Positions 18,750-42,697 are shown, counted from the first letter of the stretch. The stretch is 54,800 nt of DNA from a virus (IMGVR_UViG_3300043410_001533:1-54800); one strand, 5' to 3'. The notes: generated from the sequence alone by a model not told the origin. Made by a program: numbers and translations.

Positions 18750-18779
18750 ATTATAACACAGGTGCCATACCTTTGTCAA
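18750..18779 (-). promoter_or_regulatory. Sigma70-type early promoter
   Basis: TTGACA-N18-TATAAT with GCACCTGTGT spacer motif. Confidence 0.8.
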
Positions 18780-18898
18780 TACCCCAGTCGCCGTTGGGTG
18801 AACGACACCCAGCATCGGGCACACAGCCACCGGCCGGGGCGGGTTTCGACTCCGCCGCCAGCCAGTCGCTCGACTTTGCATTTTGCACAGGTCTGCAT
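18776..18898 (-). CDS. Small zinc-finger protein (40 aa), not in the track
   Basis: Manual translation MQTCAKCKVERLAGGGVETRPGRWLCARCWVSFTQRRLGY, two CxxC pairs; starts 3 nt after the previous stop. Confidence 0.5.
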   Translation of the reverse strand: MQTCAKCKVERLAGGGVETRPGRWLCARCWVSFTQRRLGY

Positions 18899-18901
18899 CA
18901 G

Positions 18902-19117
18902 TCAGCCCCGGAGGTTGTCGTCGATCCAGCGGTCCAAGGCGCGGAAGGCGAGCCAGCGATCGATTTGCTGGCCATCCTTCGTCGAATCGAACCACGCGTC
19001 CACCTTGGGGCCGTCGATTTCGGCGCGGAAGGCGATGCGCTGGCCGTCCAGTAGCATTTCACCCGTGAGGGTGGCCGAGTGCAAGCGCACCCGGACTTCT
19101 TTTTTGGTATTAGGCAT
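18902..19117 (-). CDS. Hypothetical protein
   Basis: 71 aa, coupled to the upstream gene, AAGGA SD. Confidence 0.6.
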   Translation of the reverse strand: MPNTKKEVRVRLHSATLTGEMLLDGQRIAFRAEIDGPKVDAWFDSTKDGQQIDRWLAFRALDRWIDDNLRG

Positions 19118-19604
19118 TTGCGGTTTCCTTCAGTGCTTTGCGGATCATGTTGCCGAGGTTCATGCGTTGCATGCCGGGGTTCAGGTGGGCGAAACGGTCG
19201 CGGAGGCCAGCTTGGGAGATCCCGGTGGCCTTGGACGCTTGGGCGTACACGCCGTCGAGGGTCAGCTTGCGCAAGCCCACTGCCACGGCGTCGCCCTTGT
19301 CGATCGAACGCTTCTTCGTGCCGTCGGCCAACTGGGTGGTGTACGCGGTGTACTGGGGCAGGTAAAGGGGATCTACTTTGCCGTTTTTGCGCTCGTTGAT
19401 GTCCATCTTGGCGCGGGCGGAGGCCTTGGCCTTTTCGATCACGAGCTGGGCAGTCGTGGGAGCGGTGATTGCAGTGTGGCCGGAGAGTGCGCCGTTGCGG
19501 ACCTTAGAAGTCTCGCCATCGACGGAGATCGTGGTCCAGCCGCCGTTCACGGCGACGATTTCAACTTGCTGGCCTGTGGCGGTGATGATTGCTACGTTTG
19601 TCAT
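19110..19604 (-). CDS. Early protein: SH3-like N-terminus plus helical C-terminal domain
   Basis: VEIVAVNGGWTTISVDG; C-terminal SIDKGDAVA..LR...FAHLNPGMQRMNLGNMIR; ATAGAGGACA leader. Confidence 0.7.
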   Translation of the reverse strand: MTNVAIITATGQQVEIVAVNGGWTTISVDGETSKVRNGALSGHTAITAPTTAQLVIEKAKASARAKMDINERKNGKVDPLYLPQYTAYTTQLADGTKKRSIDKGDAVAVGLRKLTLDGVYAQASKATGISQAGLRDRFAHLNPGMQRMNLGNMIRKALKETANA

Positions 19605-19671
19605 GGTGTGTGTCCTCTATAAGATTATCGGGTTGTGGGTCTCTGTATCTTTTTATCGATCCAGAAACTGA

Positions 19672-19701
19672 ATTATAACACGGGTGCAATGGGTTTGTCA
19701 A
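19672..19701 (-). promoter_or_regulatory. Sigma70-type early promoter
   Basis: TTGACA-N18-TATAAT with GCACCCGTGT. Confidence 0.8.
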
Positions 19702-19735
19702 GTACCCCCCTCAAACGACCCTACTGCGAATAGGG

Positions 19736-20008
19736 TCATTCGGCCTTTCCCGAGGGATCGTAAATCGTGTCCACGTACTCTTGCACGCCCTCGGTCCACT
19801 CGGCACCGGGCCAATAGACCACGTAGCCTTTGCCCATCTGGTCCACAGTCGCGCCAGCCTTTGGCAGTCCGTCCATGTCGGAGCCGTGGTCCACGACACA
19901 GGCGACGCAGTCCTGCCCATACATGAAGCGGCCCGAGTAGGGGATGGGTTTTAGGTCCCGATTGGCGATCGCGTCGATCAGGTCCATGGTGGTGTTCAGA
20001 ATCATCAT
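19736..20008 (-). CDS. Hypothetical phage protein (90 aa)
   Basis: Start MMILNTT with AGGAG SD; YSGRFMYG..CV...DQMGKG.VVYWP motif. Confidence 0.65.
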   Translation of the reverse strand: MMILNTTMDLIDAIANRDLKPIPYSGRFMYGQDCVACVVDHGSDMDGLPKAGATVDQMGKGYVVYWPGAEWTEGVQEYVDTIYDPSGKAE

Positions 20009-20226
20009 ACGTAGGCTCCTTTTCTCTTCAGCATCATTTGGCGGTCGCGGATGGCGTCGATTTCGCACCACAGCTTCCGATCGTATTCGGCGTCGCTGTT
20101 CGGGCCGACGGCGAGCATCGCGTCGTAGCAGTCGCGCAGAGCGCGGTCGCACATGTGGGCGTCGTACTCAGCGAATTTGCGACGGAAAACCGCCGCGAGG
20201 TCAGTGTAGGAGATCGTACGGTTCAT
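20005..20226 (-). CDS. Hypothetical protein (73 aa)
   Basis: Start MNRTISY with GGAGG SD; TAATG coupling; KLWCEIDAIRDR. Confidence 0.6.
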   Translation of the reverse strand: MNRTISYTDLAAVFRRKFAEYDAHMCDRALRDCYDAMLAVGPNSDAEYDRKLWCEIDAIRDRQMMLKRKGAYV

Positions 20227-20480
20227 TATTTCACCTCCGCATTGCCGGACATTTCGCCGTCCATGATGTCGAACAGCACGGCCTTCGCACGATTGAGCAT
20301 TTGGCGGGCGGCCTCGGTCTGCCCCATGGCCATCAGCTCCTGCGCGTCGGACATCAGGCCCGCGACGACCATGTTGCCGCCGGTGTAGCGGTAGGTGATC
20401 GACTCGCGAATGGAGGCCTTGAACTTCTCGATGTCGCAACCGTACATTGACTGCTCGTTGCTGGTGATTGATGTCTGCAT
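20226..20480 (-). CDS. Hypothetical early protein
   Basis: 84 aa after a promoter and the ATAGAGGACA leader; GLMSDAQELMAMG..E.ARQ.LNRAK. Confidence 0.7.
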   Translation of the reverse strand: MQTSITSNEQSMYGCDIEKFKASIRESITYRYTGGNMVVAGLMSDAQELMAMGQTEAARQMLNRAKAVLFDIMDGEMSGNAEVK

Positions 20481-20514
20481 TGTGTTGTCCTCTATGTGTT
20501 GTTAAAAAGGTTAT

Positions 20515-20544
20515 ATTATAACACAGGTGCTACAATCCTGTCAA
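20515..20544 (-). promoter_or_regulatory. Sigma70-type early promoter
   Basis: TTGACA-N18-TATAAT with GCACCTGTGT. Confidence 0.8.
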
Positions 20545-21253
20545 GTATTCCATGAAGCGAGTCCACGCCACCATTGCAGAAATGGAGCTTCGGGGCCTTT
20601 CGGTATTTGTCCTGCACGGCGTGATTGATGAACTTCGTCATTAGGACCGTGTGCGCACGGGTGAGCTTGTCGTAGGTGACGGCTTGCTCCGGCGTGAAAA
20701 AGCTCAGGTCCAAGCGATCGTGGTATTTGTTCGCTACCGCGTGAGCTTGGGCGGGTAGTAGTCCGATTACCAGCACGCCGGGACGGGCGTAGCCAGTGGG
20801 GTGCGGAATCGGCTGGGGGTTGTGCTTCGGACGATTGACCACGATCTGCGGGGCGTTCTCCAGCATTTGCGTCGACATTTTATCTGCAACCCGGGCGGCC
20901 ACGGACTCGGCGACAACGTCCAGCAGTAGCTCGAGTATATCCGCGAGCCTCGTCTTGGGGGTCTCCTTGCGTTCGGGCGCGGGGGTCGGGGCTAGTATAG
21001 GGGCAGGGGCTTCGACGGCCTTCGGAGGCGTCTTCTTCGACTCCTGCTGAGCCTTTTGCCGGGCGACTTCGATACGGTCTTTGTAGTTGAACACGCGCTG
21101 GTCGGTGACCTTGATCCAGCGGCTGGCATTGAGCACAGTCTGTGCTTCGCGCAATGCCTCTTTGCGGGTAAGATTCGGGCGTTGGCGAAAGACTTGCTCC
21201 ATACGGGCGAAGATCGCGCCTTTTTCTATGTGTGACCAGACGATTCGAGCCAT
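20516..21253 (-). CDS. Hypothetical protein with C-terminal DUF2325-like alpha/beta domain
   Basis: Start MARIVWS after ATAGAGGA; C-terminal VLVIGL...VLMTKFINH...FCNGGVDSL. Confidence 0.65.
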   Translation of the reverse strand: MARIVWSHIEKGAIFARMEQVFRQRPNLTRKEALREAQTVLNASRWIKVTDQRVFNYKDRIEVARQKAQQESKKTPPKAVEAPAPILAPTPAPERKETPKTRLADILELLLDVVAESVAARVADKMSTQMLENAPQIVVNRPKHNPQPIPHPTGYARPGVLVIGLLPAQAHAVANKYHDRLDLSFFTPEQAVTYDKLTRAHTVLMTKFINHAVQDKYRKAPKLHFCNGGVDSLHGILDRIVAPVL

Positions 21254-21271
21254 GATTTCCTCTATGTGTTT

Positions 21272-21297
21272 AAAAAGCGGGGGCCGAAGCCCCCTTG
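21272..21297 (-). terminator. Rho-independent terminator
   Basis: GGGGGC-TTCG-GCCCCC followed by GCTTTTT on the minus strand. Confidence 0.75.
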
Positions 21298-21326
21298 AAA
21301 ATGGCAACTGCAGAAGCCATACCCCC

Positions 21327-21354
21327 ATTATACCAGCGCGAGAGCCTGTGTCAA
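21327..21354 (-). promoter_or_regulatory. Sigma70-type promoter overlapping the DUF932 gene stop
   Basis: TTGACA-N16-TATAAT with TG extension. Confidence 0.6.
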
Positions 21355-22308
21355 TGCATCGCGTTTCAGGCGGGCACCGGCACCGAACCAAGCGGACTGG
21401 AGACGGGTGTCGCGCGATGCGGCTTTGCGCTCGTGATCGGCGAAGCGGGTGACGGCGTTCAGCAGTCCCCACGCGGTGCCCTGTGCAGTCTTGGCTCGCT
21501 GGCCCACGCCGTCGAGGTAGATCTTAGTCACCAGCTCGATCATCGGACGCTTGGCTTCGACGTCGATCGACTCGGCCTCGTCGCCGTAGAACACGTCGAG
21601 GAAGTAGCGGGTCGCCTCTTCTTTCGACACTTTGCGCTTGGACAGCGTGGTCGCGTTCGTCTTGAACTGGCTCCAAGTGTCCGCACACAAGCCCAACTCG
21701 GCCTTGAACTTCTCGGCGTTGAATCGGGTGCTGTGTGGCACGCGGATTTGGCCGGTCTTGTTCGCTACGGCCAGCGACAGCGTATTGTTGCACACGACAC
21801 GGGTGGTCGTGAACTGCGCAGTGTTCGACATTGAGCCGTCGCAAGACGTCGCCAGCAGTAGGTAGGGCAGGACCACGTCACCGCCGCCCACGTCGAACGA
21901 ATCCTCGGCCTTGGCCAATGCCCAGTAGGTGGAGCCGTTGCGCAGGACGCCAGCAGTCTCCATCTTGAAGTCGCCGCCTTCGGTCAGGTCGCGAAAGAAC
22001 TCCATCACGGCGCGGGGTTGGGTGATAAAGTAATTGCTCGACATGACGGACAGGGGTTCGCCGGTATCGGAGCGGTACAGTGCCCAGCGTGCGGGTACGG
22101 TCTGCATACGGACCGGATTGTCCTCCTCGTCGCGCACCTCGTAGGCGATCGCGCCCTTTTTGACCTCCCAGTCGAGGCCCGCTTCGCGAGTCCAGACGTC
22201 GAGGGGGGCGTCGGGGGTGAGCTTCTGTCCGAGTCCGTGCCAAGGGGTCTCGCCCGCGTATGCCATTGATGCTTTGCCAGCCGCATTGAAGTTAAGTTCG
22301 TGTGCCAT
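21328..22308 (-). CDS. DUF932-family protein
   Basis: MAYAGETPWHGLG, AGLDWEV, YRSDTG.PLSV.S..Y...QP, METAG.LR.G..WALA, YLLLATSCDGS, RVVCNNTL, GTAWGLLNAVT. Confidence 0.88.
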   Translation of the reverse strand: MAHELNFNAAGKASMAYAGETPWHGLGQKLTPDAPLDVWTREAGLDWEVKKGAIAYEVRDEEDNPVRMQTVPARWALYRSDTGEPLSVMSSNYFITQPRAVMEFFRDLTEGGDFKMETAGVLRNGSTYWALAKAEDSFDVGGGDVVLPYLLLATSCDGSMSNTAQFTTTRVVCNNTLSLAVANKTGQIRVPHSTRFNAEKFKAELGLCADTWSQFKTNATTLSKRKVSKEEATRYFLDVFYGDEAESIDVEAKRPMIELVTKIYLDGVGQRAKTAQGTAWGLLNAVTRFADHERKAASRDTRLQSAWFGAGARLKRDALTQALALV

Positions 22309-22344
22309 GATGTCTAGTGTCCTCTATGTGTTGATGAAGAATGA

Positions 22345-22373
22345 ATTATACCACAGGTGCTACAATCTGTCAA
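22345..22373 (-). promoter_or_regulatory. Sigma70-type early promoter
   Basis: TTGACA-N17-TATAAT with GCACCTGTGG. Confidence 0.85.
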
Positions 22374-22380
22374 GTATCGT

Positions 22381-22563
22381 CTAATCACCGAGTACTTCCC
22401 AAGTGTCGCCTTTGTGACCACACTCGTCGCACTGGTAGCCGTACTTGGCCCAAAAGATCTCGTGTCGAGGGTCCGATTTGGACTCCAAGAGCTTGACGCC
22501 CATACCCGCGTTGCAGATCGGGCAGGTATCTAGGCCCTCGTCCTCGACTTCGTCGTCATGCAT
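22381..22563 (-). CDS. Small zinc-ribbon protein
   Basis: CPIC...YQCDECG; AGGAG SD. Confidence 0.65.
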   Translation of the reverse strand: MHDDEVEDEGLDTCPICNAGMGVKLLESKSDPRHEIFWAKYGYQCDECGHKGDTWEVLGD

Positions 22564-22774
22564 AGTGTACTCCTACGATTAACGCCGCAAGCAGTGCGAC
22601 ACTGAGGGTCCAAAGGACCGCATCCCAAAAGACCTCGGCCGCTGGGCGGTACGTTGGCTCGAGTAGCGAGAGCTGGAGCCTTTCCATGTCCGCGCTTGGC
22701 TCCCACGTCTGCCGGGGCTGGTACATGCACCCGATTTGAATGCCGGTCTTGGTGGTGTAAGGGGTGATCTTCAT
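22556..22774 (-). CDS. Small membrane protein (72 aa)
   Basis: Start MKITPYTTKTGIQIG (ATGA overlap); C-terminal TM helix. Confidence 0.65.
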   Translation of the reverse strand: MKITPYTTKTGIQIGCMYQPRQTWEPSADMERLQLSLLEPTYRPAAEVFWDAVLWTLSVALLAALIVGVHYA

Positions 22775-23067
22775 TTTACGATCTCCATTTGGCGGATGTT
22801 CATCACCTCGACTTCGCCGGTGTGCTCCTCGACCCACTCGGCCGACAGGTGTGCGCGGACGGCGTCCATGTCCAGCTGTGGGCGGGTCGTGAACTTGATC
22901 TCGATCTGGTGCTGGTCGCCACGGTAGATCGCGTTGCCGCCCTTGCGGAAGATCTCTTTCAGGTACTTCTCGCGGGCAGTCAGTGCCTTGAGCTGGTCAC
23001 GCACGCTGGCGAGTTCGTCCACCATGTCAGTGGTGATTGCGACGGGCTTAGTGGTAGTCTTTGCCAT
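22771..23067 (-). CDS. Hypothetical early protein (98 aa)
   Basis: Start MAKTTTK after ATAGAGGACA; VDELASVRDQLKAL coiled coil. Confidence 0.7.
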   Translation of the reverse strand: MAKTTTKPVAITTDMVDELASVRDQLKALTAREKYLKEIFRKGGNAIYRGDQHQIEIKFTTRPQLDMDAVRAHLSAEWVEEHTGEVEVMNIRQMEIVK

Positions 23068-23136
23068 GATTGTGTGTCCTCTATAATGTCTATCGGTTGA
23101 GTGGTTACTGGATCGTCTTACCAACCCAGAATCTGT

Positions 23137-23166
23137 ATTATAACACAGGTGGGGTAGCCTTGTCAA
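23137..23166 (-). promoter_or_regulatory. Sigma70-type early promoter
   Basis: TTGACA-N18-TATAAT with CCACCTGTGT. Confidence 0.8.
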
Positions 23167-23443
23167 TACCCCCCTTCGGTATTCGTGTCGCCACGATGGT
23201 CGCATACCCCGCGATGTCCACCCATGAGTCGAGGTGGTTGGGGTCGCCGTTCAAAATGCGGGAGGCCTTGCACGCGATCATGTCGAGCGATTCACGCTGG
23301 TGGTACTCCAGCCGTTCCCAGCCGGGGCACTCGCGAAAGAGATCCTTCAGGGTCTGTGCGATCTCGGCTTGAATCGTGTAGTCGCCGTACGACTCGCCAC
23401 GCTCCGCGACCACCCCGTCTATGTTAAGAGATGACTGCGGCAT
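23138..23443 (-). CDS. DUF6378-like protein
   Basis: ERGESYGDY...ESLDMIACKASRILNGDP..DSWVDIAGYA. Confidence 0.75.
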   Translation of the reverse strand: MPQSSLNIDGVVAERGESYGDYTIQAEIAQTLKDLFRECPGWERLEYHQRESLDMIACKASRILNGDPNHLDSWVDIAGYATIVATRIPKGGIDKATPPVL

Positions 23444-24692
23444 GAGCGAGTCCTCCTTTTTTATATCGGCTCTTGTACGAGCCGGGAGGAGCTTCTTTCA
23501 CCAGACGCTCCACGATGTCTTCGGGGTCGTAGCCTTTAAGCATTCCGCGAATCAGAGCTTCGGTCGTGGCCTGTCGTCCAAGCGTCGTGGGGCCGAATGC
23601 CCCTGCTAGGTCCTGTGGGTTCGCCATAACTTGAGGCTCGGCGAGATTCTTCAGCAAGACGTCCTCGTAGGGGCGCACTTGGCTGATTCGCAGTGGCGAC
23701 GCCGTACCGGTGCCGGGGCCGTAGGCTCCCGCCATTTGCGCTTCGCGCGTCATCAGTGTGCCGATCGTTTCGTCAGGTGTCATGTTCAGGAAATTCGGGG
23801 TGCGCAAATCCTGCGCCGCGTCCATCAGTTCGTCGGTCTTCTTATTCGTTACTAGATTCGGACCACCGAATAACTTCTTCAGGTAGTAGTCTTCCTTGTG
23901 GCTGGCTTGAACAGGCATCGAGAAAAGCTGGCCGGACATCCCGGGCGAGTACGCCACCTCTTCGACTGGGGCGATATATCCGAGGTTCCCGTGTCCGAGC
24001 GAATGGGACGCCACATTGCCGAGTCGCCGCACTTGGTTTACATCCGTCAAATGCGACGCGAAGTTACCATGCCCCTGTGCACGCATCATGTCGTACGCCA
24101 GTGCGTACAGCTCTTTGCCTTTCGCGGGCAGACTCTTCCACCACGCGGAATCGGGGTCCTTCAGACCGTACGTTCCGGGCTTGACGTCCATGGCGTAGAG
24201 TTCAGTCATCGTCGGGTGAGGCATATCCATACCGAACTGTGCCCGAGCCGCATTCCACTGGGGATCGCGCATCGCCGCTTCAGCCATGTAACGCTCCAGC
24301 TCGAAACCGAGCGGGGTCTTGTCTTTGTCAAGCCTTGAGGGTGACCACGTGATGTTCGGATGAATACCCCGTGCATGTGCCTCGTCTATGTCCTTAGGTG
24401 CTTTACTCTCGGGGTCGAGTCGGATTTTGCCGGTAGAGGGCATATAGCCACGCTGTACCGCGCCTTCGTTCGTCGAGGACATCGTCGCACGAATCGGCTC
24501 GCCACTGGCGGTCTTGCCAAACATCCCGGCCTTGTTGTACTGCTCGAGCACTTCAGCGGGGAGCATGCCCGCCTGTGCTTGACGCATACCCAGCGGGACG
24601 CGCTGTGCGCCGGGGAGAGTGGCAATGGCGCGGTGGCCCCTGCCTACTCCCTCCATTAGGTCAGCGAACGATAGGTTCTTTACTGGTGGCAT
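23424..24692 (-). CDS. Paralog B: putative GNAT-like protein with C-terminal YKKGG tag
   Basis: Collinear similarity to 24997..26244 (PGAQ, SGEP.RA, ESK.PK, LY.L.YDM.RA, LT.VN..RRL.NV.SH..GHG, REAQ.AGAYGP, AFGP.TLGR); GNAT call is inference. Confidence 0.6.
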   Translation of the reverse strand: MPPVKNLSFADLMEGVGRGHRAIATLPGAQRVPLGMRQAQAGMLPAEVLEQYNKAGMFGKTASGEPIRATMSSTNEGAVQRGYMPSTGKIRLDPESKAPKDIDEAHARGIHPNITWSPSRLDKDKTPLGFELERYMAEAAMRDPQWNAARAQFGMDMPHPTMTELYAMDVKPGTYGLKDPDSAWWKSLPAKGKELYALAYDMMRAQGHGNFASHLTDVNQVRRLGNVASHSLGHGNLGYIAPVEEVAYSPGMSGQLFSMPVQASHKEDYYLKKLFGGPNLVTNKKTDELMDAAQDLRTPNFLNMTPDETIGTLMTREAQMAGAYGPGTGTASPLRISQVRPYEDVLLKNLAEPQVMANPQDLAGAFGPTTLGRQATTEALIRGMLKGYDPEDIVERLVKEAPPGSYKSRYKKGGLAHAAVIS

Positions 24693-24934
24693 TCTATCCC
24701 CTCAAGGTGATCATATGCGTCGCGGAATTCGTCGACTACGTAGTCGTAAGAATCGGAGGCGTTCTCACGCACCATCTCTTCCCACTCTAAGTTGTGGTCG
24801 CAGTATTCCGACTGGTCTTCGCACATTTCGGCCCGACGCAGTCCGGCGTAGGTCGCATCGTCAATACCCAATGCGGCAAGCGCGGCGCGAGCGCGGGTGA
24901 GCAATTCGCGAGATTCGGGTTTCATCGTAATCAT
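24680..24934 (-). CDS. Hypothetical acidic protein
   Basis: 84 aa after a promoter and the ATAGAGGAC leader. Confidence 0.65.
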   Translation of the reverse strand: MITMKPESRELLTRARAALAALGIDDATYAGLRRAEMCEDQSEYCDHNLEWEEMVRENASDSYDYVVDEFRDAYDHLEGIECHQ

Positions 24935-24978
24935 GGTAGTAGTCCTCTATAGTCTATGTGTGGTGGAAGGGAAGTCAT

Positions 24979-25007
24979 ATTATAACACACGTGGGACTAG
25001 GCGTCAA
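24979..25007 (-). promoter_or_regulatory. Sigma70-type promoter
   Basis: TTGACG-N17-TATAAT with CCACGTGTGT. Confidence 0.75.
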
Positions 25008-26244
25008 GTGCGGTGGCCAGCCCGCCTTTTGCGTATCGACCCTTAATCGCTTCCAGCGGCACACCCTTGAACAGTTCATACGAGATCTCTTCGGGTGTCT
25101 GCCCACGGAGCATTCGCGCCACGGTCTCCTCAGTGGTGAGTGCTCGTCCAAGAGTGTTGGGTCCAAATGCGCGTAAAATGCTGTCTCTACCCTGCTCACT
25201 GGCTTTTTTCACCGTCGGCACAGACAAAGCCCGGAGGTCTTTCATGTCGAAAGGCCCAAGTCCTTGAGTCGGTGGTCCATAAGCCCCCGCAAGTTGTGCC
25301 TCGCGCAAAAGCATATAGCCCGCCATCTCGTCATCGGTGAGACCAGCAAATGCCCGAGGTCCCATTCCTTGGAGCTTCGTGCCGAACTTCGAAGGCAACA
25401 AATCGCGAAGGTAACTGTCTTCAAGATTTATGTCATCGACCGGCGACTTAAAAGATTGAGAGGACCACGGGGTCAATCCCCGGACTTTTTCTTCGTTCAA
25501 CGGCGAAATCGTGCCGAAGTCACCATGGCCGAAATAATGTGACAACACATTCCGAAGTCGGCGCGGGTGATTCACTTCAGTCAGTGTTCCTGCGGTTACG
25601 CCAAATTCACCACGAGGTGCACGCGACATATCGTACCCAAGCTGGTAGAGGTTAGTACCGGGGGATTTAAATCCTTTCCACCCGGGGCCACTGCCGCCTG
25701 CATCCATCGCGTTAATTTGGAACATTTGAGCGGATTTGGAACCAATACCGGTCTCACGCCCAGCCCGCACGTCGGCCTTATACTTTTCGAAGTTACGAGC
25801 ATCAATCGGACCGAGCATATTTTCAATCCGATTGAATAATGGGCCGGTCCGGTTGTAATCGTACGTGTCGTAGTCGTAGTCTTTCTTAAAGCGCATGGTC
25901 GGATTGCCATCGCCTTCCCGGTATGCTTTGGGCGTCTTGCTTTCCCCATGTAGAACTATATCGAATTTATCATTCGTATTTTCTTGGATCGGCACATTCT
26001 TACTTACCGGGCCGTCAACGTGGGGACTCATGACTGATGCCCGCACAGGTTCGCCGCTCGGCAATGTGCCAAATATCCCCTTGTCGCTCGCGATCTTGGC
26101 CATTTCGCCGTGCGTCTTGCCGCGCAAAAGATCTCGAATTTCGAACGCTTGAGCACCGGGTTTGGCCGCCGCCGCTTTGTGGACGTCGGCCAGCCCCGTA
26201 AGCAGGTCTTTAAACGTCAGTCCCTTCGGTATGGGCGGAGCCAT
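24997..26244 (-). CDS. Paralog A: putative GNAT-like protein with C-terminal YAKGG tag
   Basis: Start MAPPIPK (GAGG SD) lies inside the end of the HDAC gene; aligns with paralog B from its N-terminus; GNAT call is inference. Confidence 0.6.
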   Translation of the reverse strand: MAPPIPKGLTFKDLLTGLADVHKAAAAKPGAQAFEIRDLLRGKTHGEMAKIASDKGIFGTLPSGEPVRASVMSPHVDGPVSKNVPIQENTNDKFDIVLHGESKTPKAYREGDGNPTMRFKKDYDYDTYDYNRTGPLFNRIENMLGPIDARNFEKYKADVRAGRETGIGSKSAQMFQINAMDAGGSGPGWKGFKSPGTNLYQLGYDMSRAPRGEFGVTAGTLTEVNHPRRLRNVLSHYFGHGDFGTISPLNEEKVRGLTPWSSQSFKSPVDDINLEDSYLRDLLPSKFGTKLQGMGPRAFAGLTDDEMAGYMLLREAQLAGAYGPPTQGLGPFDMKDLRALSVPTVKKASEQGRDSILRAFGPNTLGRALTTEETVARMLRGQTPEEISYELFKGVPLEAIKGRYAKGGLATALDA

Positions 26245-27079
26245 GGTATACCTCGTCGCTGATCGCCAGCGTTTGCAGGTGGATGTCGATCGTGTCTTGC
26301 ATATTCTTCGCGTATCCACCGGCTAGATTCCACACCAATGGGACCCCGGCTTCGCGTGCGGCAGTGAAGATACCACGATCGCGGGCCGCGAGACCCTCCT
26401 TGGACAGGTACCCGACGCCGTAGGGGTCTTGGTCCCAAGCGTCAGCACCGGCCTGATACAGTATTATACCAGCTTTAGAGTGTCGAATCAATCCCTTGGC
26501 GAACGACTGCCACATCGCGGCATTCCAGTCGGACTGGATCGGGCGTCCTATGTCGGGGCGGGTGACGTGCGTAACGCGACCCCGAATCATCAGGTGGTCC
26601 AGTATATCCTCGGTCCCGTCGCCGTGGTGACCATCTCCGTCTATAATCAGCACATTCTTCGCGCCGTTGCGCAGTGCCTTCATCGCGGTGATCATCAGCC
26701 CGTTGAACGTGCAGTACCCGTACCCATCCTCGAAGTGGGCGTGGTGGAAGCCCTGAGTCGCGGAGCACGCCACGGCACCACGCACGCCACCTTGCTGGAG
26801 CACGTGCTTAGCCGCCGCCCAGTGGCCAGCGTTCGAGTAGAGGAGCGAGTTCGTGATCTCCGGATCGATCGTGTTGAACCCGTTGGGGGCGACATTCTTC
26901 AGGATGCCACGGACATACTCGCGGTGGTGCGCCTCCTCGAAGTCTACCGCCGTGTATGGCTCGAAGTTCGAGCGCACGTCGCCCTCCAACTGGTGGATGA
27001 ACTCGGGAATCTTCCTAACGGAGATAAAGTCGTAGGAGACCTCTTGGGCCGGGTGGTAGAATACGGGGGTGTTAGTCAT
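26210..27079 (-). CDS. Histone-deacetylase-family (Zn-dependent amidohydrolase) protein
   Basis: GFHHA catalytic His pair, GYCTFN, VLIIDGDGHHGDGT Zn ligands, YQAGADAWDQDP, LAGGY with catalytic Tyr. Confidence 0.9.
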   Translation of the reverse strand: MTNTPVFYHPAQEVSYDFISVRKIPEFIHQLEGDVRSNFEPYTAVDFEEAHHREYVRGILKNVAPNGFNTIDPEITNSLLYSNAGHWAAAKHVLQQGGVRGAVACSATQGFHHAHFEDGYGYCTFNGLMITAMKALRNGAKNVLIIDGDGHHGDGTEDILDHLMIRGRVTHVTRPDIGRPIQSDWNAAMWQSFAKGLIRHSKAGIILYQAGADAWDQDPYGVGYLSKEGLAARDRGIFTAAREAGVPLVWNLAGGYAKNMQDTIDIHLQTLAISDEVYHGSAHTEGTDV

Positions 27080-27090
27080 GGTAATGTCCT

Positions 27091-27333
27091 CTATAGTTTA
27101 TTGGTAGGGGACGAATTATACCACACCTGCGATAGATTGTCAACCCCCTTCTTTTTCTTGTCCTTCGGCGGCTCGGGCAGTTCAGCACGCTCGATGTCGC
27201 GCTCGTCGGCCTTTTCGCGAGTCGTGAAGCGAAATTCGCAGTGATTGCAAATCCGGCGACGGCGGGTGATGCCGTTAGCGTTTTGGTAGGTCGTCGTGAC
27301 CCGGGTGTCTTCCCCACACTTGATGCAGTTCAT
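27091..27333 (-). CDS. NrdR-N-terminal-like zinc ribbon protein
   Basis: MNCIKCG..TRV..T......RRRRIC.HC..RFTTRE; ATGA overlap with the datZ stop. Confidence 0.7.
   Translation of the reverse strand: MNCIKCGEDTRVTTTYQNANGITRRRRICNHCEFRFTTREKADERDIERAELPEPPKDKKKKGVDNLSQVWYNSSPTNKL
27115..27143 (-). promoter_or_regulatory. Sigma70-type promoter for the HDAC-paralog A unit
   Basis: TTGACA-N17-TATAAT, then the ATAGAGGACA leader at 27085-27094. Confidence 0.8.
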
Positions 27334-27893
27334 AACCATCCCCCTGTAATTCCTATATCGTTGCACACGCGACGCACCGACTCGCGGGGCGAGAGCTTGG
27401 GATGCAAACGCTCGGCCTCAGTCACCATGTCGGACAGAATCGCCCGGAGGCCGTCCAACACTTGCTTAGCGTGCGCTCCGACTCCGTTGTCCTGCAGGAA
27501 AAAGATCGCCTCGATCTGGTCCGCAAGCTTCACGATCGTCTCTACTTCTGTGCCGCGCACTTGTCGGTAAGCCGACATGGTCTCGGCGTCCACTCGGTCC
27601 TCAGCCTTTTCCACGATACCCTTACCCCCTACGGCTTCTAGGTCTCGCTTGAAAGGCGTTGGCATATCTCCGGTGCGCACCTCGATGATGTCGTGCGCGA
27701 GTGCCCACTGCAGGAGCTTCAATTTGCCCGATTCCTGCAACAGGCCATTCCAGCGCATTGCGGCCGCAAGGGATCCCGCGATCACCGCTACTGCGAAAGA
27801 GTGCTCGGCCAGCGTCTGCTCGCGTGACGTCTGCACGATGTGCCAGCGACGAACGTGGCAAGCGCGAAGCTGTTCGTATACTGTTAAACTCAT
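27330..27893 (-). CDS. datZ: HD-domain dATP triphosphohydrolase
   Basis: VRRWHIV..QTLAEHS, ALAHDIIEVRTGDMPTPFK, IVKLAD.IEA; YfbR-like HD fold next to purZ. Confidence 0.85.
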   Translation of the reverse strand: MSLTVYEQLRACHVRRWHIVQTSREQTLAEHSFAVAVIAGSLAAAMRWNGLLQESGKLKLLQWALAHDIIEVRTGDMPTPFKRDLEAVGGKGIVEKAEDRVDAETMSAYRQVRGTEVETIVKLADQIEAIFFLQDNGVGAHAKQVLDGLRAILSDMVTEAERLHPKLSPRESVRRVCNDIGITGGWL

Positions 27894-27982
27894 AAGGGTG
27901 CGTCCTCGTAATTCTCTATGTTAAATGGTAGCCGGTAGAGCGGCTGGTGTTCAGGCAGTTTAGACGGGAATGGCCACGTCAC
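27890..27982 (-). CDS. Small protein (30 aa)
   Basis: GTGA-coupled start, MTWPFPSKLPEHQPLYRLPFNIENYEDAPL; ATGA-coupled to datZ. Confidence 0.45.
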   Translation of the reverse strand: MTWPFPSKLPEHQPLYRLPFNIENYEDAPL

Positions 27983-28194
27983 GACTTGACGGCTTGCAGT
28001 CTGCGAATCTGGTCCGCTATCTGGTCGCCAGTCAGCTCGTCGAAGAGCTGGAATTCGTACTGCCGGGCCACGTGTTCGAGTGCTCCGTTCCATATCTTTT
28101 TCACTGCCTCCCTATTTTCATTATCTTCGGACCCGAGCACGTTACCAAACGTCTGCTCGTACCACTGATCGAATGCTTCATTTCTCTTCGACAT
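27979..28194 (-). CDS. Hypothetical protein
   Basis: 71 aa, AAGGA SD, overlaps the mazZ end. Confidence 0.6.
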   Translation of the reverse strand: MSKRNEAFDQWYEQTFGNVLGSEDNENREAVKKIWNGALEHVARQYEFQLFDELTGDQIADQIRRLQAVKS

Positions 28195-28681
28195 GGCGCA
28201 TTATCCTTGTGTTAACGTCCACTTCCCACTGACGTTGCTCATTGATATCCATCTTGTCTTCTACCGCCTTATGTACGTCTATGCCGTTTTTGTGCGCGAC
28301 GTCCAGCAGTAGAATCATGATATCACCCATTTCGAGAGCGGCTTTTGGGTTACGAGCGTACTCGCCCACCTCCTCGTAGAGCTTGAGTAGGATGTCCGCA
28401 GTGGTACGCGCCGGAAAACGCGAGTCTGCCCACTTGGTAATTCTATCCTGAAGCTGTCGGATGTCGGCCCCGCCGCGCTTTTTGTACGCGTTGACGGCGC
28501 GGACCGCAAGGTCGGCATTTTTATCGCAGTTCCCCATAACCCCACGCAAGTGGTGACGGACTTCGAAAGACGCGACGGTTGCGCCTTGCGCATCGACAAT
28601 TTCGGCCGCCCGCTCGGGGTGGACTGCCCATGGAAGTTCATTCGCTTCATCCGTGTGTACTGTTGATTCTACCTGTAGCAT
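28178..28681 (-). CDS. mazZ: MazG/DUF550-like (d)NTP pyrophosphohydrolase with extra N-terminal domain
   Basis: WADSRFP.RT..ILLKLYEEVGEY...EMGDIMILLLD...KMDINEQRQW; start MLQVES after GGAGAG; adjacent to purZ. Confidence 0.8.
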   Translation of the reverse strand: MLQVESTVHTDEANELPWAVHPERAAEIVDAQGATVASFEVRHHLRGVMGNCDKNADLAVRAVNAYKKRGGADIRQLQDRITKWADSRFPARTTADILLKLYEEVGEYARNPKAALEMGDIMILLLDVAHKNGIDVHKAVEDKMDINEQRQWEVDVNTRIMRHVEEK

Positions 28682-29774
28682 ATACTCTCCAAAGTTCAAG
28701 AATTCGCGCCAGCCGAGCATCTGAGCTGTACTGAGGCATTGAGTAAACATCTTTATATTCCGGTCCAAGTCCGATCCAACGCACGAATGTGTTCGGCGTA
28801 CGCTCGATTGACTCCACGATATCCCGTACCTCGTCCTCGGACCTGCAGTAATTGACGAAGTTCAGGAAGATCTCACGGGCACCATTATACTCGATCGCTT
28901 CGCCGATCTGCTTGCGGCTGAACGTAAAAATACGGCGCGGGAGCTTGGTCACAGTGGTCAGCTCGGTCTTTTGCCCGATCTCCTCGAACGTGATCTCCAG
29001 CTGGTCGTCGTAGCACGGACCGGAGTACCCGACTTGCGTCCCGTGTGTGTCGAACCGGTTGGCCACGCGGATCGGGTAAGTGCGGCAAGTGCCGACGACG
29101 GTGATGTCGGGGAGGTCCATGACTTGTGGTAGCAGATCGTGCGGAATGCCGCAATCGGCGAGGATTTGCCACAGGCTCACATCACGCGAAGTGGTGTAGG
29201 GGTAGAAGCCGTGGTACATCGACAGCCCGTACCCTTGTGCACCTTCTACCAGCACGTGCTCGGCTTCACGCAGTGCGGTGCGATACGCAGACACTGTGAC
29301 TACGTATTTCGCCAGCTCCGCACAATTGGCGGCTATATTCAGATCGTCCGGATCGCGCCGAATTCGCTGAATCATCGCGGCACCCACGCCCTTTTTAGTC
29401 GAACCGATCTTGGTCATTGGCCCGGCTTCCTCTTCGATGTGACGATCGGTCACTACGGCGGCGTGCGGGTGGATCGCGATTCGCACATTCTTGAGCAAGT
29501 CCGCGCACGCGGCGATCTCTTCGAGCAGTTGCTGGGGGTTTATGAGTGAGCCGGGGCCAAGTAGCACCTGCTTGAGCATGGGCGACACGATGCTATTCGC
29601 AAGGTGCGTATGGATGAACTTGCGTCCAGTCTTGCTGATGTACGTGTGCCCCGCATTGGGTGCCCACGCGGTGATTACCGTATCCGGTGCTTCGTCCTCC
29701 GCGATCTTGCCTACGATCAGCCCCTTGCCGGTGCTTCCATATTGCAAATCGACTACGACTTTAATCTTGTCCAT
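28647..29774 (-). CDS. purZ: N6-succino-2-amino-2'-deoxyadenylate synthase (PurA paralog for Z base)
   Basis: DLQYGSTGKG (Ser where PurA has Asp in GDEGKG), PNAGHT, IGSTKKG, EGAQG, YPYTTSRD, PIRV, ELTTVTK..RR, FLNFVNY (NF.N instead of PurA TKLD); start MDKIK with GAGG SD. Confidence 0.95.
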   Translation of the reverse strand: MDKIKVVVDLQYGSTGKGLIVGKIAEDEAPDTVITAWAPNAGHTYISKTGRKFIHTHLANSIVSPMLKQVLLGPGSLINPQQLLEEIAACADLLKNVRIAIHPHAAVVTDRHIEEEAGPMTKIGSTKKGVGAAMIQRIRRDPDDLNIAANCAELAKYVVTVSAYRTALREAEHVLVEGAQGYGLSMYHGFYPYTTSRDVSLWQILADCGIPHDLLPQVMDLPDITVVGTCRTYPIRVANRFDTHGTQVGYSGPCYDDQLEITFEEIGQKTELTTVTKLPRRIFTFSRKQIGEAIEYNGAREIFLNFVNYCRSEDEVRDIVESIERTPNTFVRWIGLGPEYKDVYSMPQYSSDARLARILELWRVYATGRINSTHG

Positions 29775-29779
29775 TACCT

Positions 29780-31615
29780 CTATCCTTTCGCTTCGTACCA
29801 GTCTTCGCCTATACCCCAGTCGCACGTGATCGGAACACGCAGATGAATGGGGCATTCTACACCATCAAAGGTCGTGTAGATTCGTGCTACCTCTTTCGCT
29901 TTGTCAAGTGAGTCATTATCGAGCGATATGCCCACCTCGTCGTGCACCGTCAGCAGTAGTCGCCCACAGCCTTCGGCGGTTAAATACTTGTGAAGCTCGA
30001 TGAGCTTTTGCTTCATGCAGTCCGCGCTGGTGGCTTGGTAAATCAGCCCCGACGCCTTGTGCACGAATTGGCCGCCCGGAAAGCGAAGCCTCCGGCCCAT
30101 CACCGAATGCACCGATCCGCGCTCTTTGGCAATGTTACTCGCCTTCTGTGCGGTGTTGCGCATCCCGGGGTTGGCGGTGTGGTACTTCTCGAACAGTGCC
30201 ATCGCCTCAGGTCCAGCCTTAAGGAACACATTGCCGTTGGGTCCCACCTCTTCGGTATATGGCAGTCCACACTCTTGCGCTAGTCGCCCCGACCCCATAT
30301 TGAACGCCAGCCCGAGGTTAATCGCCTTCGAAGACGGGCCACCCGCGTACTGAGCGTTCCGGGGTATGCCGGTGAGATCAGACACCAACTGGTGAAAGTC
30401 CAAATCGGGGTTCGCACGATAGGCCTCAAGAATCGCGGGAACCTGACCGTAATGGTTAGCCACTCGGAATTCAAATTGTGACCAATCCAGCCCCATCCAT
30501 TTAGCACCCACATCAGCCTTGAAAATCGGCCGGATAAGCGATTTGATGGCAACGTCTCTAGATGGTATCTGCTGGAGAGCGGGATTGGTAACTGATAGAC
30601 GTCCAGTGCCAGTGCCCGCCTCAGAGTCGTTTTTAGTCTGATTATAATTGCAGTGAATGATGCCATCGTGTTCATGCCCTAAGATGTGACCCGATAGGAA
30701 TGTATCCCGGGTCTTGAGCATTTTGCGCAAGTCGAGAATCATCTTTGCGGCGGGGTGCTTCATGCGACGTAGGCAGTCGGCGTTGATCGAGGCCTTGCCA
30801 CCGTCGGTCTTGTCCGCTTTTGTGCCATCAATCAGGTACCACTCATTATCGTCCCCGAGTGTCGGCTTGAATAGGTCCGCGATCGATCCGGAAGGGTTCG
30901 GGTTGACCTCGAAACCGGCCAAGCTATTCAGATCCCTCTGCATATTGTCAACGCGCACGGTGAGGTCACGAACGGCCTTCTCAGCCAGCCCTACATCCAC
31001 CCGCACACCCTGCTCTTCCATGTCCATGATGACTGGCATCAAGTCGCGCTCGAGCTTGTGCACTTGGGCGAGATTCTGCGTCCGCATCTGCTCCTCTTGC
31101 CACTGGTACAGTGCCAGCGTCACCACAGCGTCTTGAATCGCGTATTTCGACACGAGACTGATGGGGGCGCGAGAAATGTTCGGCATCTGTGCGTTGCGAG
31201 TCGGGCGACCACCGAAGAGGCGCGACATCTCCTCGTAGATCTCCTCGTCCTTCTTCATCCCGCAGTATTTACGAGCGAGGAAGTCGAGGGCGTACGTGGG
31301 TTCGTGCTCCGAAATCAGAGCGGCACGGGTCATCGTGCAGTCGATTCGGTCCAGTGGTAGTGCGACTCCGGCTTCGCGCAGGAAGTGCAAGTCGAACTTG
31401 AGATTATGGCCAACCCACAGCCCGACGCGCTTCTCTTTGATAAGATCGTTGAGCCATGCGACGATGTAGGGGTCGGACCGGACGTCCCAGTAGCCCGAGT
31501 ACCCCGGGAATGCGATGGAAATGCCGAACAGCTTGTCGGCCCACCACTTCAATCCCGTGGTCTCGGTGTCTATGACCACGACAGGTTCGTAGTCAATGCG
31601 TGGGAGTTCGGTCAT
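29780..31615 (-). CDS. dpoZ: Family A DNA polymerase, DpoZ-like (3'-5' exonuclease plus polymerase, no 5' nuclease)
   Basis: DTETTG, HNLKFD, YAIQD exonuclease motifs; TGRLS..NPALQQIP; DWSQFEFR; motif B KAINLGLAFNMG with Phe in place of the usual Tyr; VHDE; directly upstream of purZ. Confidence 0.88.
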   Translation of the reverse strand: MTELPRIDYEPVVVIDTETTGLKWWADKLFGISIAFPGYSGYWDVRSDPYIVAWLNDLIKEKRVGLWVGHNLKFDLHFLREAGVALPLDRIDCTMTRAALISEHEPTYALDFLARKYCGMKKDEEIYEEMSRLFGGRPTRNAQMPNISRAPISLVSKYAIQDAVVTLALYQWQEEQMRTQNLAQVHKLERDLMPVIMDMEEQGVRVDVGLAEKAVRDLTVRVDNMQRDLNSLAGFEVNPNPSGSIADLFKPTLGDDNEWYLIDGTKADKTDGGKASINADCLRRMKHPAAKMILDLRKMLKTRDTFLSGHILGHEHDGIIHCNYNQTKNDSEAGTGTGRLSVTNPALQQIPSRDVAIKSLIRPIFKADVGAKWMGLDWSQFEFRVANHYGQVPAILEAYRANPDLDFHQLVSDLTGIPRNAQYAGGPSSKAINLGLAFNMGSGRLAQECGLPYTEEVGPNGNVFLKAGPEAMALFEKYHTANPGMRNTAQKASNIAKERGSVHSVMGRRLRFPGGQFVHKASGLIYQATSADCMKQKLIELHKYLTAEGCGRLLLTVHDEVGISLDNDSLDKAKEVARIYTTFDGVECPIHLRVPITCDWGIGEDWYEAKG

Positions 31616-31878
31616 CAGAATGGGATGTCGTCGAATTCAACGCCGGAATCACTCGCTGGTCGGCCAGATGCCGCAGTTCCGCCCTCTTTGCGATTGATCT
31701 TGATGGAGAAGTATTTCTTGCCTTCCATCTTGCCACCGGCCTTGCCTTCATTAACCCACGCGGAAAGCCAGTAGTCCACGCCCTCTACGTTGATCGAGCC
31801 AGTGAATTCCGGATGCTTGTCCGTCTTGCGATTCTCAGCGCGAGCCATAATGCCCGAATTGGTGTTATCGTATGCCAT
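31615..31878 (-). CDS. Small SSB-like protein (DUF736-like)
   Basis: K.DKHPEFTGSINVEG..YWLSAW...KYFSIKI and an acidic DDIPF tail. Confidence 0.75.
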   Translation of the reverse strand: MAYDNTNSGIMARAENRKTDKHPEFTGSINVEGVDYWLSAWVNEGKAGGKMEGKKYFSIKINRKEGGTAASGRPASDSGVEFDDIPF

Positions 31879-31915
31879 CTTGAATGTCCTCTATCTGTTG
31901 GTTACTGAAGTGGCT

Positions 31916-31944
31916 ATTATACCACCCGCGATACTGTCTGTCAA
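31916..31944 (-). promoter_or_regulatory. Sigma70-type promoter driving the SSB-dpoZ-purZ-mazZ-datZ operon
   Basis: TTGACA-N17-TATAAT; ATAGAGGACA leader at 31885-31894. Confidence 0.8.
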
Positions 31945-38598: not shown

Positions 38599-38627
38599 TT
38601 GACACCACTTCTGTGGGCTGGTATAAT
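38599..38627 (+). promoter_or_regulatory. Consensus sigma70 promoter on the plus strand, firing into element B
   Basis: TTGACA(38599-604)-N17-TATAAT(38622-627) with TG extension. Confidence 0.75.
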
Positions 38628-38654
38628 TATAACATCTCGCCATCGGAACATCAA
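38626..38654 (-). promoter_or_regulatory. Promoter for the primase operon, overlapping the plus-strand promoter
   Basis: TTGATG-N17-TATAAT; shares the palindrome TATAATTATA. Confidence 0.65.
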
Positions 38655-42685: not shown

Positions 42686-42697
42686 TGTGGACCCCTA

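Follow-up and report, generated by a model that had tools for sequence, protein, structure and literature searches.

A conserved pair of HDAC-family and GNAT-like genes in uncultured Z-genome phages

The stretch of DNA studied here, IMGVR_UViG_3300043410_001533:1-54800, is the record of an uncultured freshwater virus. It holds 54,800 bases, is rated as 98%-complete, and is called the window below. On the minus strand, which carries all real genes of the window, a gene for an HDAC-family deacylase is followed by two paralogous genes, A and B, whose products are probably built around a divergent GNAT fold. What is new here is the obligatory coupling, in a group of phages, of an HDAC11-like deacylase to a GNAT-like family that is an orphan by sequence. 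Also new are a tail motif that this family shares with proteins encoded among the head genes, and a cassette carrying a second paralog.

The HDAC gene and its partner

The module runs from 23424, the stop codon of paralog B, to 27143, the -35 box of the promoter before the HDAC gene. The order of transcription is polymerase, PurZ, MazG-like, DatZ, NrdR-like, HDAC, A, p84 and finally B (Table 1).

The HDAC protein matches PF00850 with an E-value (E) of 2.2e-27, or 96.6 bits where the cut-off is 27.9, and 129 solved HDAC-family sequences match it at E <=0.001. Residues H112, H113, D149, H151, D213 and Y256 are invariant in 30 aligned homologs. These are the tandem histidines, the D-x-H and D zinc ligands and the GGY tyrosine, roles that are assigned from the HDAC8 pattern, and from alignment to HdaH of Vibrio cholerae (VcHdaH). 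This last protein is also the closest solved relative (9gkv, cluster 5b, E 7e-20). Acetylpolyamine amidohydrolases match more weakly, and in part only (E 3e-10).

VcHdaH is described as a selective lysine de-decanoylase of cluster 5b, while cluster 5 also includes HDAC11, a fatty-acyl lysine deacylase; the same source gives this cluster a G-F/Y-H-H sequence in place of the R-P-P motif, with x-G-G-Y present (PMC11532494). The phage protein reads Q-G-F-H-H and A-G-G-Y, as do VcHdaH and HDAC11. Together with the nearest solved relative, this sequence pattern suggests a protein-lysine deacylase, which may prefer chains longer than acetyl.

Short HDAC proteins of this phage type are far more widespread than the pair, with 1318 proteins found at E <=1e-10, and one metagenome source labels the HDAC as 'AcuC-like'. 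Among 50,697 deposited phage records, tblastn finds matches to it only in Rhodococcus phage E3 and in huge uncultured phages.

The initial annotation had described an intact HDAC gene behind a dedicated promoter, with the last 35 nucleotides (nt) of the gene overlapping the start of A, and with B behind the next promoter. The gene is indeed intact, and the promoter before it is a perfect TTGACA-17-TATAAT, located 36 nt ahead of the ATG and inside the 3' end of the NrdR-like gene. The overlap is also exactly 35 nt (the ATG of A is at 26244, and the HDAC stop codon ends at 26210). The third point needs amending. A promoter is present at 25007-24979, but it first drives p84, a gene that had been missed, and only then B.

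The junction between the end of HDAC and the start of A is homologous to the junction between the end of HDAC and the start of B in a single-copy relative. This also places the start codon of A. Identity between the two paralogs is 34% from end to end (E 1e-50), and B is up to 94% identical to the single-copy orthologs of related phages.

Between A and B lies p84, which overlaps the start of B by 13 nt. It travels with A as a cassette, and this cassette is conserved in a metagenome locus, L045, where p84 is 75% identical. The p84 protein is very acidic and has several cysteines, and its translation is coupled to that of B. Its role could be to inhibit B or to mimic DNA.

The family to which A and B belong is small. 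It amounts to 20 clusters at 90% identity among 5.8 billion proteins, and to 39 representatives at 50% identity among 1.84 billion proteins, nearly all of these about 400 amino acids (aa) long. It is confined to viral and metagenome contigs. Neither A, nor B, nor the head-module protein P0060 has a tblastn match in the deposited phage records, and a scan of 185,579 species genomes gave no relatives of the family. A metagenome scan gave one locus, L045.

Related loci were taken from IMG/VR, where the family query gave 44 loci and the HDAC query 80 (the best 80 of 210), 67 of them new. A family member is present in 104 of the 112 loci examined, which comes to 59 distinct sequences. Linkage was counted over the 56 distinct sequences with at least 900 nt upstream. 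In 55 of these, an HDAC gene ends within 200 nt of the start of the partner. The sole exception is the B copy of L045, which stands behind A and p84, exactly as in the window. The co-occurrence of the paralogs' homologs with HDAC genes, proposed as a check in the initial annotation, is therefore found almost throughout. The two genes almost always overlap, by 2-53 nt, which means that HDAC and partner are translated together.

The partner is the fastest-evolving gene of the block. B falls below HDAC in identity in 41 of 42 loci; the median identity to the window is 65% for B (minimum 28%), 80% for HDAC, and 88-93% for PurZ, DatZ and the polymerase. Two copies are found only in the window and in L045. 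In a quick tree, A-type proteins form a clade of 14 rows with 99% support, apart from a B-type clade of 22 rows. On this tree, A is no recent tandem duplicate of B: it is either an old paralog or an import by recombination.

In every locus with enough flank, the HDAC/partner pair lies directly downstream of DpoZ, PurZ, MazZ and DatZ, so the placement behind the Z-base genes, also remarked on earlier, is general. The names DpoZ, MazZ and DatZ are applied here on our own assumption, from the Z-genome literature, as the database gives PHROG descriptions only. The clade is one of uncultured Z-genome (diaminopurine) phages of roughly 55-59 kb. The far end of the window has the genes for endolysin, virion and tail-fibre proteins, which makes it a full genome in permuted form. 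Its DNA similarity to deposited phages is limited to about 100 nt, within the DUF6378 gene. Among sequencing runs, it is present at full length in two DNA runs from a single sample, perhaps its source, and no RNA run is listed for it.

The NrdR-like gene between DatZ and HDAC is kept in 39 of the first 44 related loci. Beyond B there are genes for a DUF6378 protein and two small open reading frames (ORFs), then one for a DUF932 protein, and further along the small and large terminase, P0060, portal and capsid genes. The capsid protein is of the HK97 type, by family match.

Around the module, in 22500-28000, 6 promoter-like sites are observed, where shuffled sequence gives 2.4 +/- 1.9. The wider block 18750-31944 on the minus strand has about ten consensus sigma-70 promoters (TTGACA, 16-18 nt, TG-n-TATAAT), most of them with the ribosome-binding leader ATAGAGGAC and a start codon about 25-55 nt downstream. 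The structural half has two weaker matches only, both without the TG. The block looks like an early or middle regulon driven by the host polymerase.

Further into the window, two overlapping and opposed promoter-like sites (38599-38654, both strands) lie at the border of the structural and replication parts, which may be the genome's switch region. Next to it, 37009-38571 on the minus strand encodes 520 aa with an archaeo-eukaryotic primase domain of the TOTE conflict-system type (PF22548, E 2.3e-13) and PriCT-1. Four large ORFs at 39015-48243, also on the minus strand (684, 538, 324 and 1524 aa), are entirely or almost without family matches. These are possibly internal or ejection proteins.

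Table 1 Features of the module, its upstream neighbours and the carriers of the tail motif
Feature	Position	Strand	Remarks
DUF6321 protein, 128 aa	4884-5270	-	One motif copy before the domain
P0061, 262 aa, basic low-complexity head-module protein	5719-6507	-	8 motif copies
P0060, 400 aa, between large terminase and portal	13398-14600	-	N-terminal domain, 3 motif copies (133-163), C-terminal module (159-400)
Paralog B, 422 aa	23424-24692	-	Orthologous to the single copy in related phages
C-terminal tag of B, RYKKGGLAHAAVIS	23427-23468	-	
GNAT-like core of B, residues 45-255	23928-24560	-	Part of the model that aligns to GNAT structures
p84, 84-aa acidic ORF between A and B	24680-24934	-	No family match
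Second sigma-70 promoter, TTGACG-17-TATAAT, TG	24979-25007	-	Overlaps the end of A
Paralog A, 415 aa	24997-26244	-	GNAT-like core about 45-260, helical C-terminal region, R-Y-A-K-G-G-L tail
C-terminal tag of A, RYAKGGLATALDA	25000-25038	-	
HDAC-family Zn-dependent deacylase, 289 aa	26210-27079	-	PF00850, catalytic residues intact
NrdR-like Zn-ribbon protein, 91 aa	27091-27366	-	PF22811, E 2.5e-8
Sigma-70 promoter, TTGACA-17-TATAAT, extended -10 TG	27115-27143	-	12/12 consensus, before HDAC
dATP triphosphohydrolase (DatZ)	27330-27893	-	phrog_7076, E 3.2e-30
MazG-like pyrophosphatase	28178-28768	-	PHROG description
PurZ	28647-29855	-	phrog_1211, E 2.4e-86
PolA-type polymerase (DpoZ-type)	29780-31615	-	Upstream context

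The GNAT-like core

Both paralogs had been noted to contain a G..LY...YD / LT.VN..RR..N segment. Over 56 sequences this turns out to be the most conserved part of the family. In B numbering, G192, Y196, N219 and R222 are invariant, and D201, L215, R223, N226, H234 and G235 are at least 90% conserved.

Two structure models were made. The model of full-length A, from 21 sequences, has a predicted local distance difference test score (pLDDT) of 66 and a predicted template modelling score (pTM) of 0.68. For residues 40-335 of B, 56 sequences were available, and the scores are 93.8 and 0.90. Apart from Foldseek searches, the models were structurally aligned to 48,161 representative chains.

The resulting lists consist almost entirely of GNATs. 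For A, 41 of the top 50 structures are named acetyl-, acyl- or myristoyltransferases, 8 cannot be named by title, and 1 is unrelated (RnlA), with alignment Z scores of 3.8-5.4. The 8 unnamed ones are PamZ, At1g77540, an integron cassette protein, Rv1916, ICL2, Elp3, MYST1 and OrfE, most of which we take to be of the GNAT type. For B, 39 are named transferases, 10 are unnamed and 1 is unrelated, at Z scores of 4.6-6.4. Here 88-129 residues are aligned at a root-mean-square deviation of 3.3-5.2 Å, and small GNATs are covered nearly end to end.

In the model of B, G192, Y196 and D201 sit on the helix after strand 4, and N219, R222, R223 and N226 on the helix after strand 5. In GNATs, the helices after these two strands hold the pyrophosphate and the 3'-phospho-ADP of coenzyme A (CoA).

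A number of results weigh against a secure GNAT assignment, or against a standard enzyme. At E <=0.001, Foldseek finds nothing in PDB for A or B, and nothing in BFVD for the core of B; for B, its first-ranked hit is yeast HAT1, at E 0.97. All structural Z scores stay below 8, the level that the tool calls secure, and a score below it can reflect a common arrangement only. Of the Q/R-x-x-G-x-G/A loop only the glycine is kept, and the loop is about 25 residues long. This glycine, the invariant G192 of B, does start the corresponding helix, with unconserved flanks and with Glu, Asp or Asn at position +2. The C-terminal domain of ICL2 and Rv1916 also ranks high in the structural lists (Z 6.2); these are presumably non-catalytic domains that bind acetyl-CoA.

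Sequence comparison does not help the case either. Pfam GNAT families match 0 of the 56 members at E <=5, PF00583 matches nothing in a six-frame translation of the genome, and searching PDB sequences with profiles gives nothing relevant for the family. A and B have no Pfam match and no useful PHROG match, and a protein atlas gives only scores below 0.8 for B and P0060.

The initial annotation had likened the conserved segment to motif A/B of GNATs, and had proposed fold prediction on both paralogs as a check. The likeness holds in so far as the segment falls on the GNAT-aligned part of two models, but not at the level of Pfam matches, and the loop is not canonical. Likewise the structural lists are nearly all GNAT, while the Foldseek results are not significant and the Z scores lie between 3.8 and 6.4. 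With Z scores below 8, and no row standing out above the rest, a GNAT fold is likely but not established. As modelled, the core, which takes up the first two thirds of A and B, probably adopts a divergent form of it. This would make the family a case where a fold is suggested by a deep-alignment structure model alone, with sequence methods blind to it.

There are also weak hints of a tie to polyvalent proteins. LPD37 (PF18853) outscores every other six-frame match in 3 of 5 related genomes, always inside the GNAT-like gene, at 13.8-16.2 bits (below the 27-bit cut-off) and E 1.4e-4 to 7.7e-4 per genome. It has no match in the window itself, and 2 of the 56 members reach E 0.01. In BFVD, the entry ranked first is a 'large polyvalent protein associated domain' protein, at E 0.12 and probability 0.84. 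These rows are a lead, and not a sign of membership. No relevant paper on LPD37 was found.

The tail motif

Each of the 56 aligned family members has [F/Y]-x-x-R-Y-x-x-G-G-[L/A/S] near its C-terminus, after which there are always 5-8 residues, most of them small and hydrophobic. The YxKGG ends of A and B had been reported as otherwise marking virion-module proteins. In the six-frame ORFs of at least 60 aa, Y.KGG does occur just 4 times, at the C-termini of A and B, and in two head-module ORFs.

A more general form, [FYLM][AK][KTNDQRS]GG, has 14 occurrences in the 63 genes (16,664 aa) of the window. They are confined to 5 proteins: one copy each in A, B and the DUF6321 protein, three in P0060 and eight in P0061. 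In 1000 shuffles within proteins, which preserve composition, the mean is 1.26 +/- 1.13 and the maximum 6. The enrichment is somewhat inflated because the motif was defined after seeing instances of it.

P0061 is encoded after the capsid gene. All 8 copies are kept in 3 full-length orthologs, and a fourth (L049) has 10. A distant homolog of 449 aa in GenBank MW202545.1, encoded between the capsid and tail-adaptor genes, has about ten. The protein is rich in Lys, Gly, Ala, Pro and Met, its copies read hydrophobic-K-x-G-G, and its C-terminus is F-K-K-G-G-R-V-C. A role as an internal protein, scaffolding-like or associated with DNA, is conceivable, with cutting or docking at each motif. The strict motif is absent from all four large ORFs at 39015-48243.

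In four related loci (L098, L099, L101 and L111) the GNAT-like protein does not end at the motif. Exactly there, the P0060 C-terminal module follows on in the same chain, in one copy or two (E 1e-13, 2e-21 and 7e-17). A separate full-length P0060 gene is kept in 3 of the 3 fusion genomes searched. In the window, A and B are solo proteins, so the fusion of effector and delivery module is seen in relatives only. In L101 (4815-7463) two tandem P0060-type modules follow the motif, and in L097 (4818-6263) the motif is present twice, with an unrelated extension rich in Pro.

The C-terminal module of P0060 is carried by 170 proteins. The longer ones join it and the N-terminal domain of P0060 to an inserted ART-PolyVal (P0283, E 1.8e-10), to DUF6973 (P0267), to another insert of about 240 aa, or to tandem modules, and have motif copies at every border. 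The module, in P0060 as in homologs P0217, P0218, P0283 and P0267, has two twin-arginine strings, A-R-R-G-F-L-G-L-G and T-R-R-x-V-L-x-x-A-A-G-Q; Pfam TAT_signal matches the second string internally in two of the homologs, at 24 bits where the cut-off is 22.7.

Both GNAT and ART domains are known from phage polyvalent proteins, which are believed to enter the host along with the DNA and must be cut into units (PMC5512222). Judged by domain content, the P0060-type arrangement with motifs at its borders is the architecture of such co-delivered proteins. The position of the motif at module borders, taken together with this architecture, points to a processing site or a docking peptide. Hydrophobic-x-G-G sequences are sites of adenovirus-type proteases. 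The lysine of the motif was also considered as an acylation site. This was rejected, as the lysine is in many copies Asn, Asp, Thr, Gln or Gly.

Possible function and known systems

The reading preferred here is that of an acyl-transferring effector which is packed into the capsid or targeted to it, and whose eraser or antidote is an HDAC11-like deacylase translated together with it. We give this a probability of about 0.4. The GNAT-like protein would acylate lysines of a host or phage protein, possibly with a longer chain given the type of HDAC. The HDAC would strip the same mark, as eraser or antidote in the cell that makes both. The tail motif would bring the GNAT-like protein to the site of the motif-bearing head-gene proteins, most simply the inside of the procapsid, either as docking peptide or as maturation-cleavage site, and the enzyme would then reach the host along with the DNA. 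That there are two versions, A and B, which have diverged, would fit the diversification of an effector. What we infer here is the GNAT fold, which is likely, and with it acyl transfer, a substrate shared with the HDAC, and capsid loading.

A more specific form is an acylation weapon. In it, GNAT-fold enzymes would be loaded into the capsid by an RYxxGG-L docking or cleavage peptide shared with P0061 and P0060, and injected with the Z-DNA. They would acylate host targets, perhaps with long chains, with the HDAC11-like protein as antidote in the producing cell. In this full form the idea is doubtful.

Several observations sit badly with capsid loading, or with the pair as a tightly selected unit. 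The module lies within the sigma-70 promoter block, together with replication genes, and not among the structural genes. This position disfavours late expression coupled to packaging, and an intracellular role fits it at least equally. P0060 and P0061 are taken as virion proteins from gene position only. Among the head-module and large proteins, no maturation protease or peptidase family was found. With its lysine unconserved, the motif is also unlikely to be the site of the acyl mark. There are 8 phage loci where an HDAC at 34-41% identity has no partner, and has other neighbours. Finally, the linked loci share one synteny with Z-genome genes, so they are one clade, and the linkage does not consist of independent events. 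It may reflect common descent as much as selection.

The best of the alternatives is that the pair works as an early or middle writer and eraser only inside the infected cell, on a host or phage protein, with no virion delivery, and with the tail as a partner-binding peptide or degron. We think this rather unlikely. It is favoured by the position of the module, in the sigma-70 promoter block with the replication and Z-base genes instead of the structural half. Some degradation tags end, like this tail with its last 5-8 residues, in small hydrophobic amino acids. There is also a cellular operon of the same logic, AcuA/AcuC (PMC13121692). An intracellular pair, however, leaves unexplained why the motif is found at the module borders of P0060 and repeated 8-10 times in P0061, and why relatives of A and B are fused to the P0060 module, which elsewhere comes with ART-PolyVal.

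It is less likely still that the GNAT-like protein is no enzyme at all. It would then be a regulatory or substrate-presenting subunit of the HDAC, perhaps a sensor of acyl-CoA, and the HDAC alone would act, for example on host proteins or acetyl-polyamines. The lack of a canonical acyl-CoA loop and of any Pfam GNAT match would fit, as would the ICL2 and Rv1916 domains (Z 6.2) among the best structural matches. The overlap of the genes implies co-translation in fixed proportion. Viral acetylpolyamine amidohydrolases do exist, in giant viruses only in the study concerned (PMC9992855). Yet in the model, the invariant residues of 56 divergent sequences would sit at the GNAT cofactor site, and the HDAC is nearer to the cluster 5 lysine deacylases than to the acetylpolyamine amidohydrolases. 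Rapid divergence and the gain of a paralog are also more like an effector than like a regulatory subunit.

Very improbable is the last alternative, a pair linked to the Z genome that modifies DNA or nucleotides, where the GNAT-like protein acylates a base or nucleotide and the HDAC trims or reverses this. The precedent would be Mom of phage Mu, which has a GNAT-type fold and probably modifies adenine in this way. Such a substrate, which the initial annotation had allowed for, is possible, and the positive evidence for it in these genomes is the position directly downstream of DpoZ-PurZ-MazZ-DatZ; HDAC-fold enzymes in general also act on small molecules (PMC9992855). Against it, tblastn gives no Z-genome phage with the pair among the deposited records, the tail motif and the fusions point to head-gene proteins and not to DNA enzymes, and no paper in the library searched links PurZ, diaminopurine, phage and deacetylase.

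If A and B with the HDAC are indeed writers and eraser, this would be the first case of reversible acylation as the basis of a phage system. Phages would then have one more route, besides ADP-ribosylation, phosphorylation and glucosylation, by which to rewire or disarm their host, and HDAC11-type deacylases of bacteria and viruses would gain a defined biological partner. Should the weapon form be true, it would be a pair of toxin and enzymatic immunity, of a chemistry undescribed for phages, with a new capsid-targeting signal. The tail motif is a 7-residue signal at the borders of head-protein modules and the ends of cargo-like enzymes. It could be a signal for capsid loading or for maturation cleavage, with which foreign proteins could be packaged and the ejected effectors of uncultured phages recognised.

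Many of the ingredients are not new. The AcuA/AcuC operon, polyvalent GNAT domains, GNAT toxins with upstream antidotes and viral polyamine enzymes are all known already. The initial annotation knew of no phage switch made of a GNAT and an HDAC; a cellular precedent exists in AcuA/AcuC. In the library searched, no paper was found that links Z-genome phages with a deacetylase.

AcuA (a GNAT) and AcuC (of the HDAC family) come from the acu operon of Bacilli, and act on acetyl-CoA synthetase (PMC13121692, PMC11255334). As here, a GNAT-type writer and a zinc deacetylase are adjacent, and in the Acu case they address the same lysine (PMC11532494). Unlike the phage pair, AcuA/AcuC belongs to cellular metabolism, and AcuA has the sequence of a canonical GNAT. 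The phage partner has about 410 aa, no GNAT sequence match, a helical C-terminal part, the tail motif and a fast rate of evolution. The phage HDAC differs from AcuC in being nearest to cluster 5 (HDAC11-like).

Viruses also encode GNAT acetyltransferases and HDAC-fold amidohydrolases for one small molecule, as polyamine enzymes. These are found in different viruses, the GNATs in phages and the acetylpolyamine amidohydrolases only in Imitervirales, within the survey that describes them (PMC9992855). The phage HDAC is unlike these amidohydrolases, given its weak and partial match to them.

As in the polyvalent proteins described by Iyer et al. 2017 (PMC5512222), presumed protein-modifying domains are joined, in different phages, to a module encoded next to head genes. 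In that work GNATs are found next to ARTs (PMC5512222). A and B differ from polyvalent GNATs by being separate proteins in the replication block, by not being RimI-like by sequence, and by their obligatory HDAC partner. The word 'deacetylase' has 0 occurrences in the text of PMC5512222, supplements aside, and these may list related architectures. The phage pair also shares with GNAT toxins an upstream overlapping partner gene before a protein of known or, here, likely GNAT fold. T4 Alt is a further comparison, as a packaged modifying enzyme.

The GNAT toxins TacT/TacA and AtaT/AtaR have upstream overlapping antitoxins, and DarG is an enzymatic antidote for DarT. Reversal of a mark by a hydrolase, as proposed for the phage HDAC, would be DarG-like. 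TacT3, TacT2 and AtaT are among the structural matches of B, at Z scores of 4.7-5.1. To our knowledge, the antitoxins of known GNAT toxins are DNA-binding proteins which neutralise the toxin by attaching to it, and none is an HDAC. The upstream partner in the phages is unlike that of TacAT and AtaRT, a 289-aa HDAC enzyme in place of a small DNA-binding antitoxin.

The last comparison is with encapsulins. Their targeting peptides are short and C-terminal, are rich in Gly and small hydrophobic residues, and dock cargo inside a shell of the HK97 fold, with one site per subunit (PMC10960027). The phage tail is likewise a short C-terminal Gly/small-hydrophobic sequence, in a phage with an HK97-type capsid protein. 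The encapsulin peptide reads GSLxIGSLK where the phage motif reads RYxxGG-L/A, and unlike it the phage motif is also found internally and at module borders, an arrangement that fits cleavage equally well.

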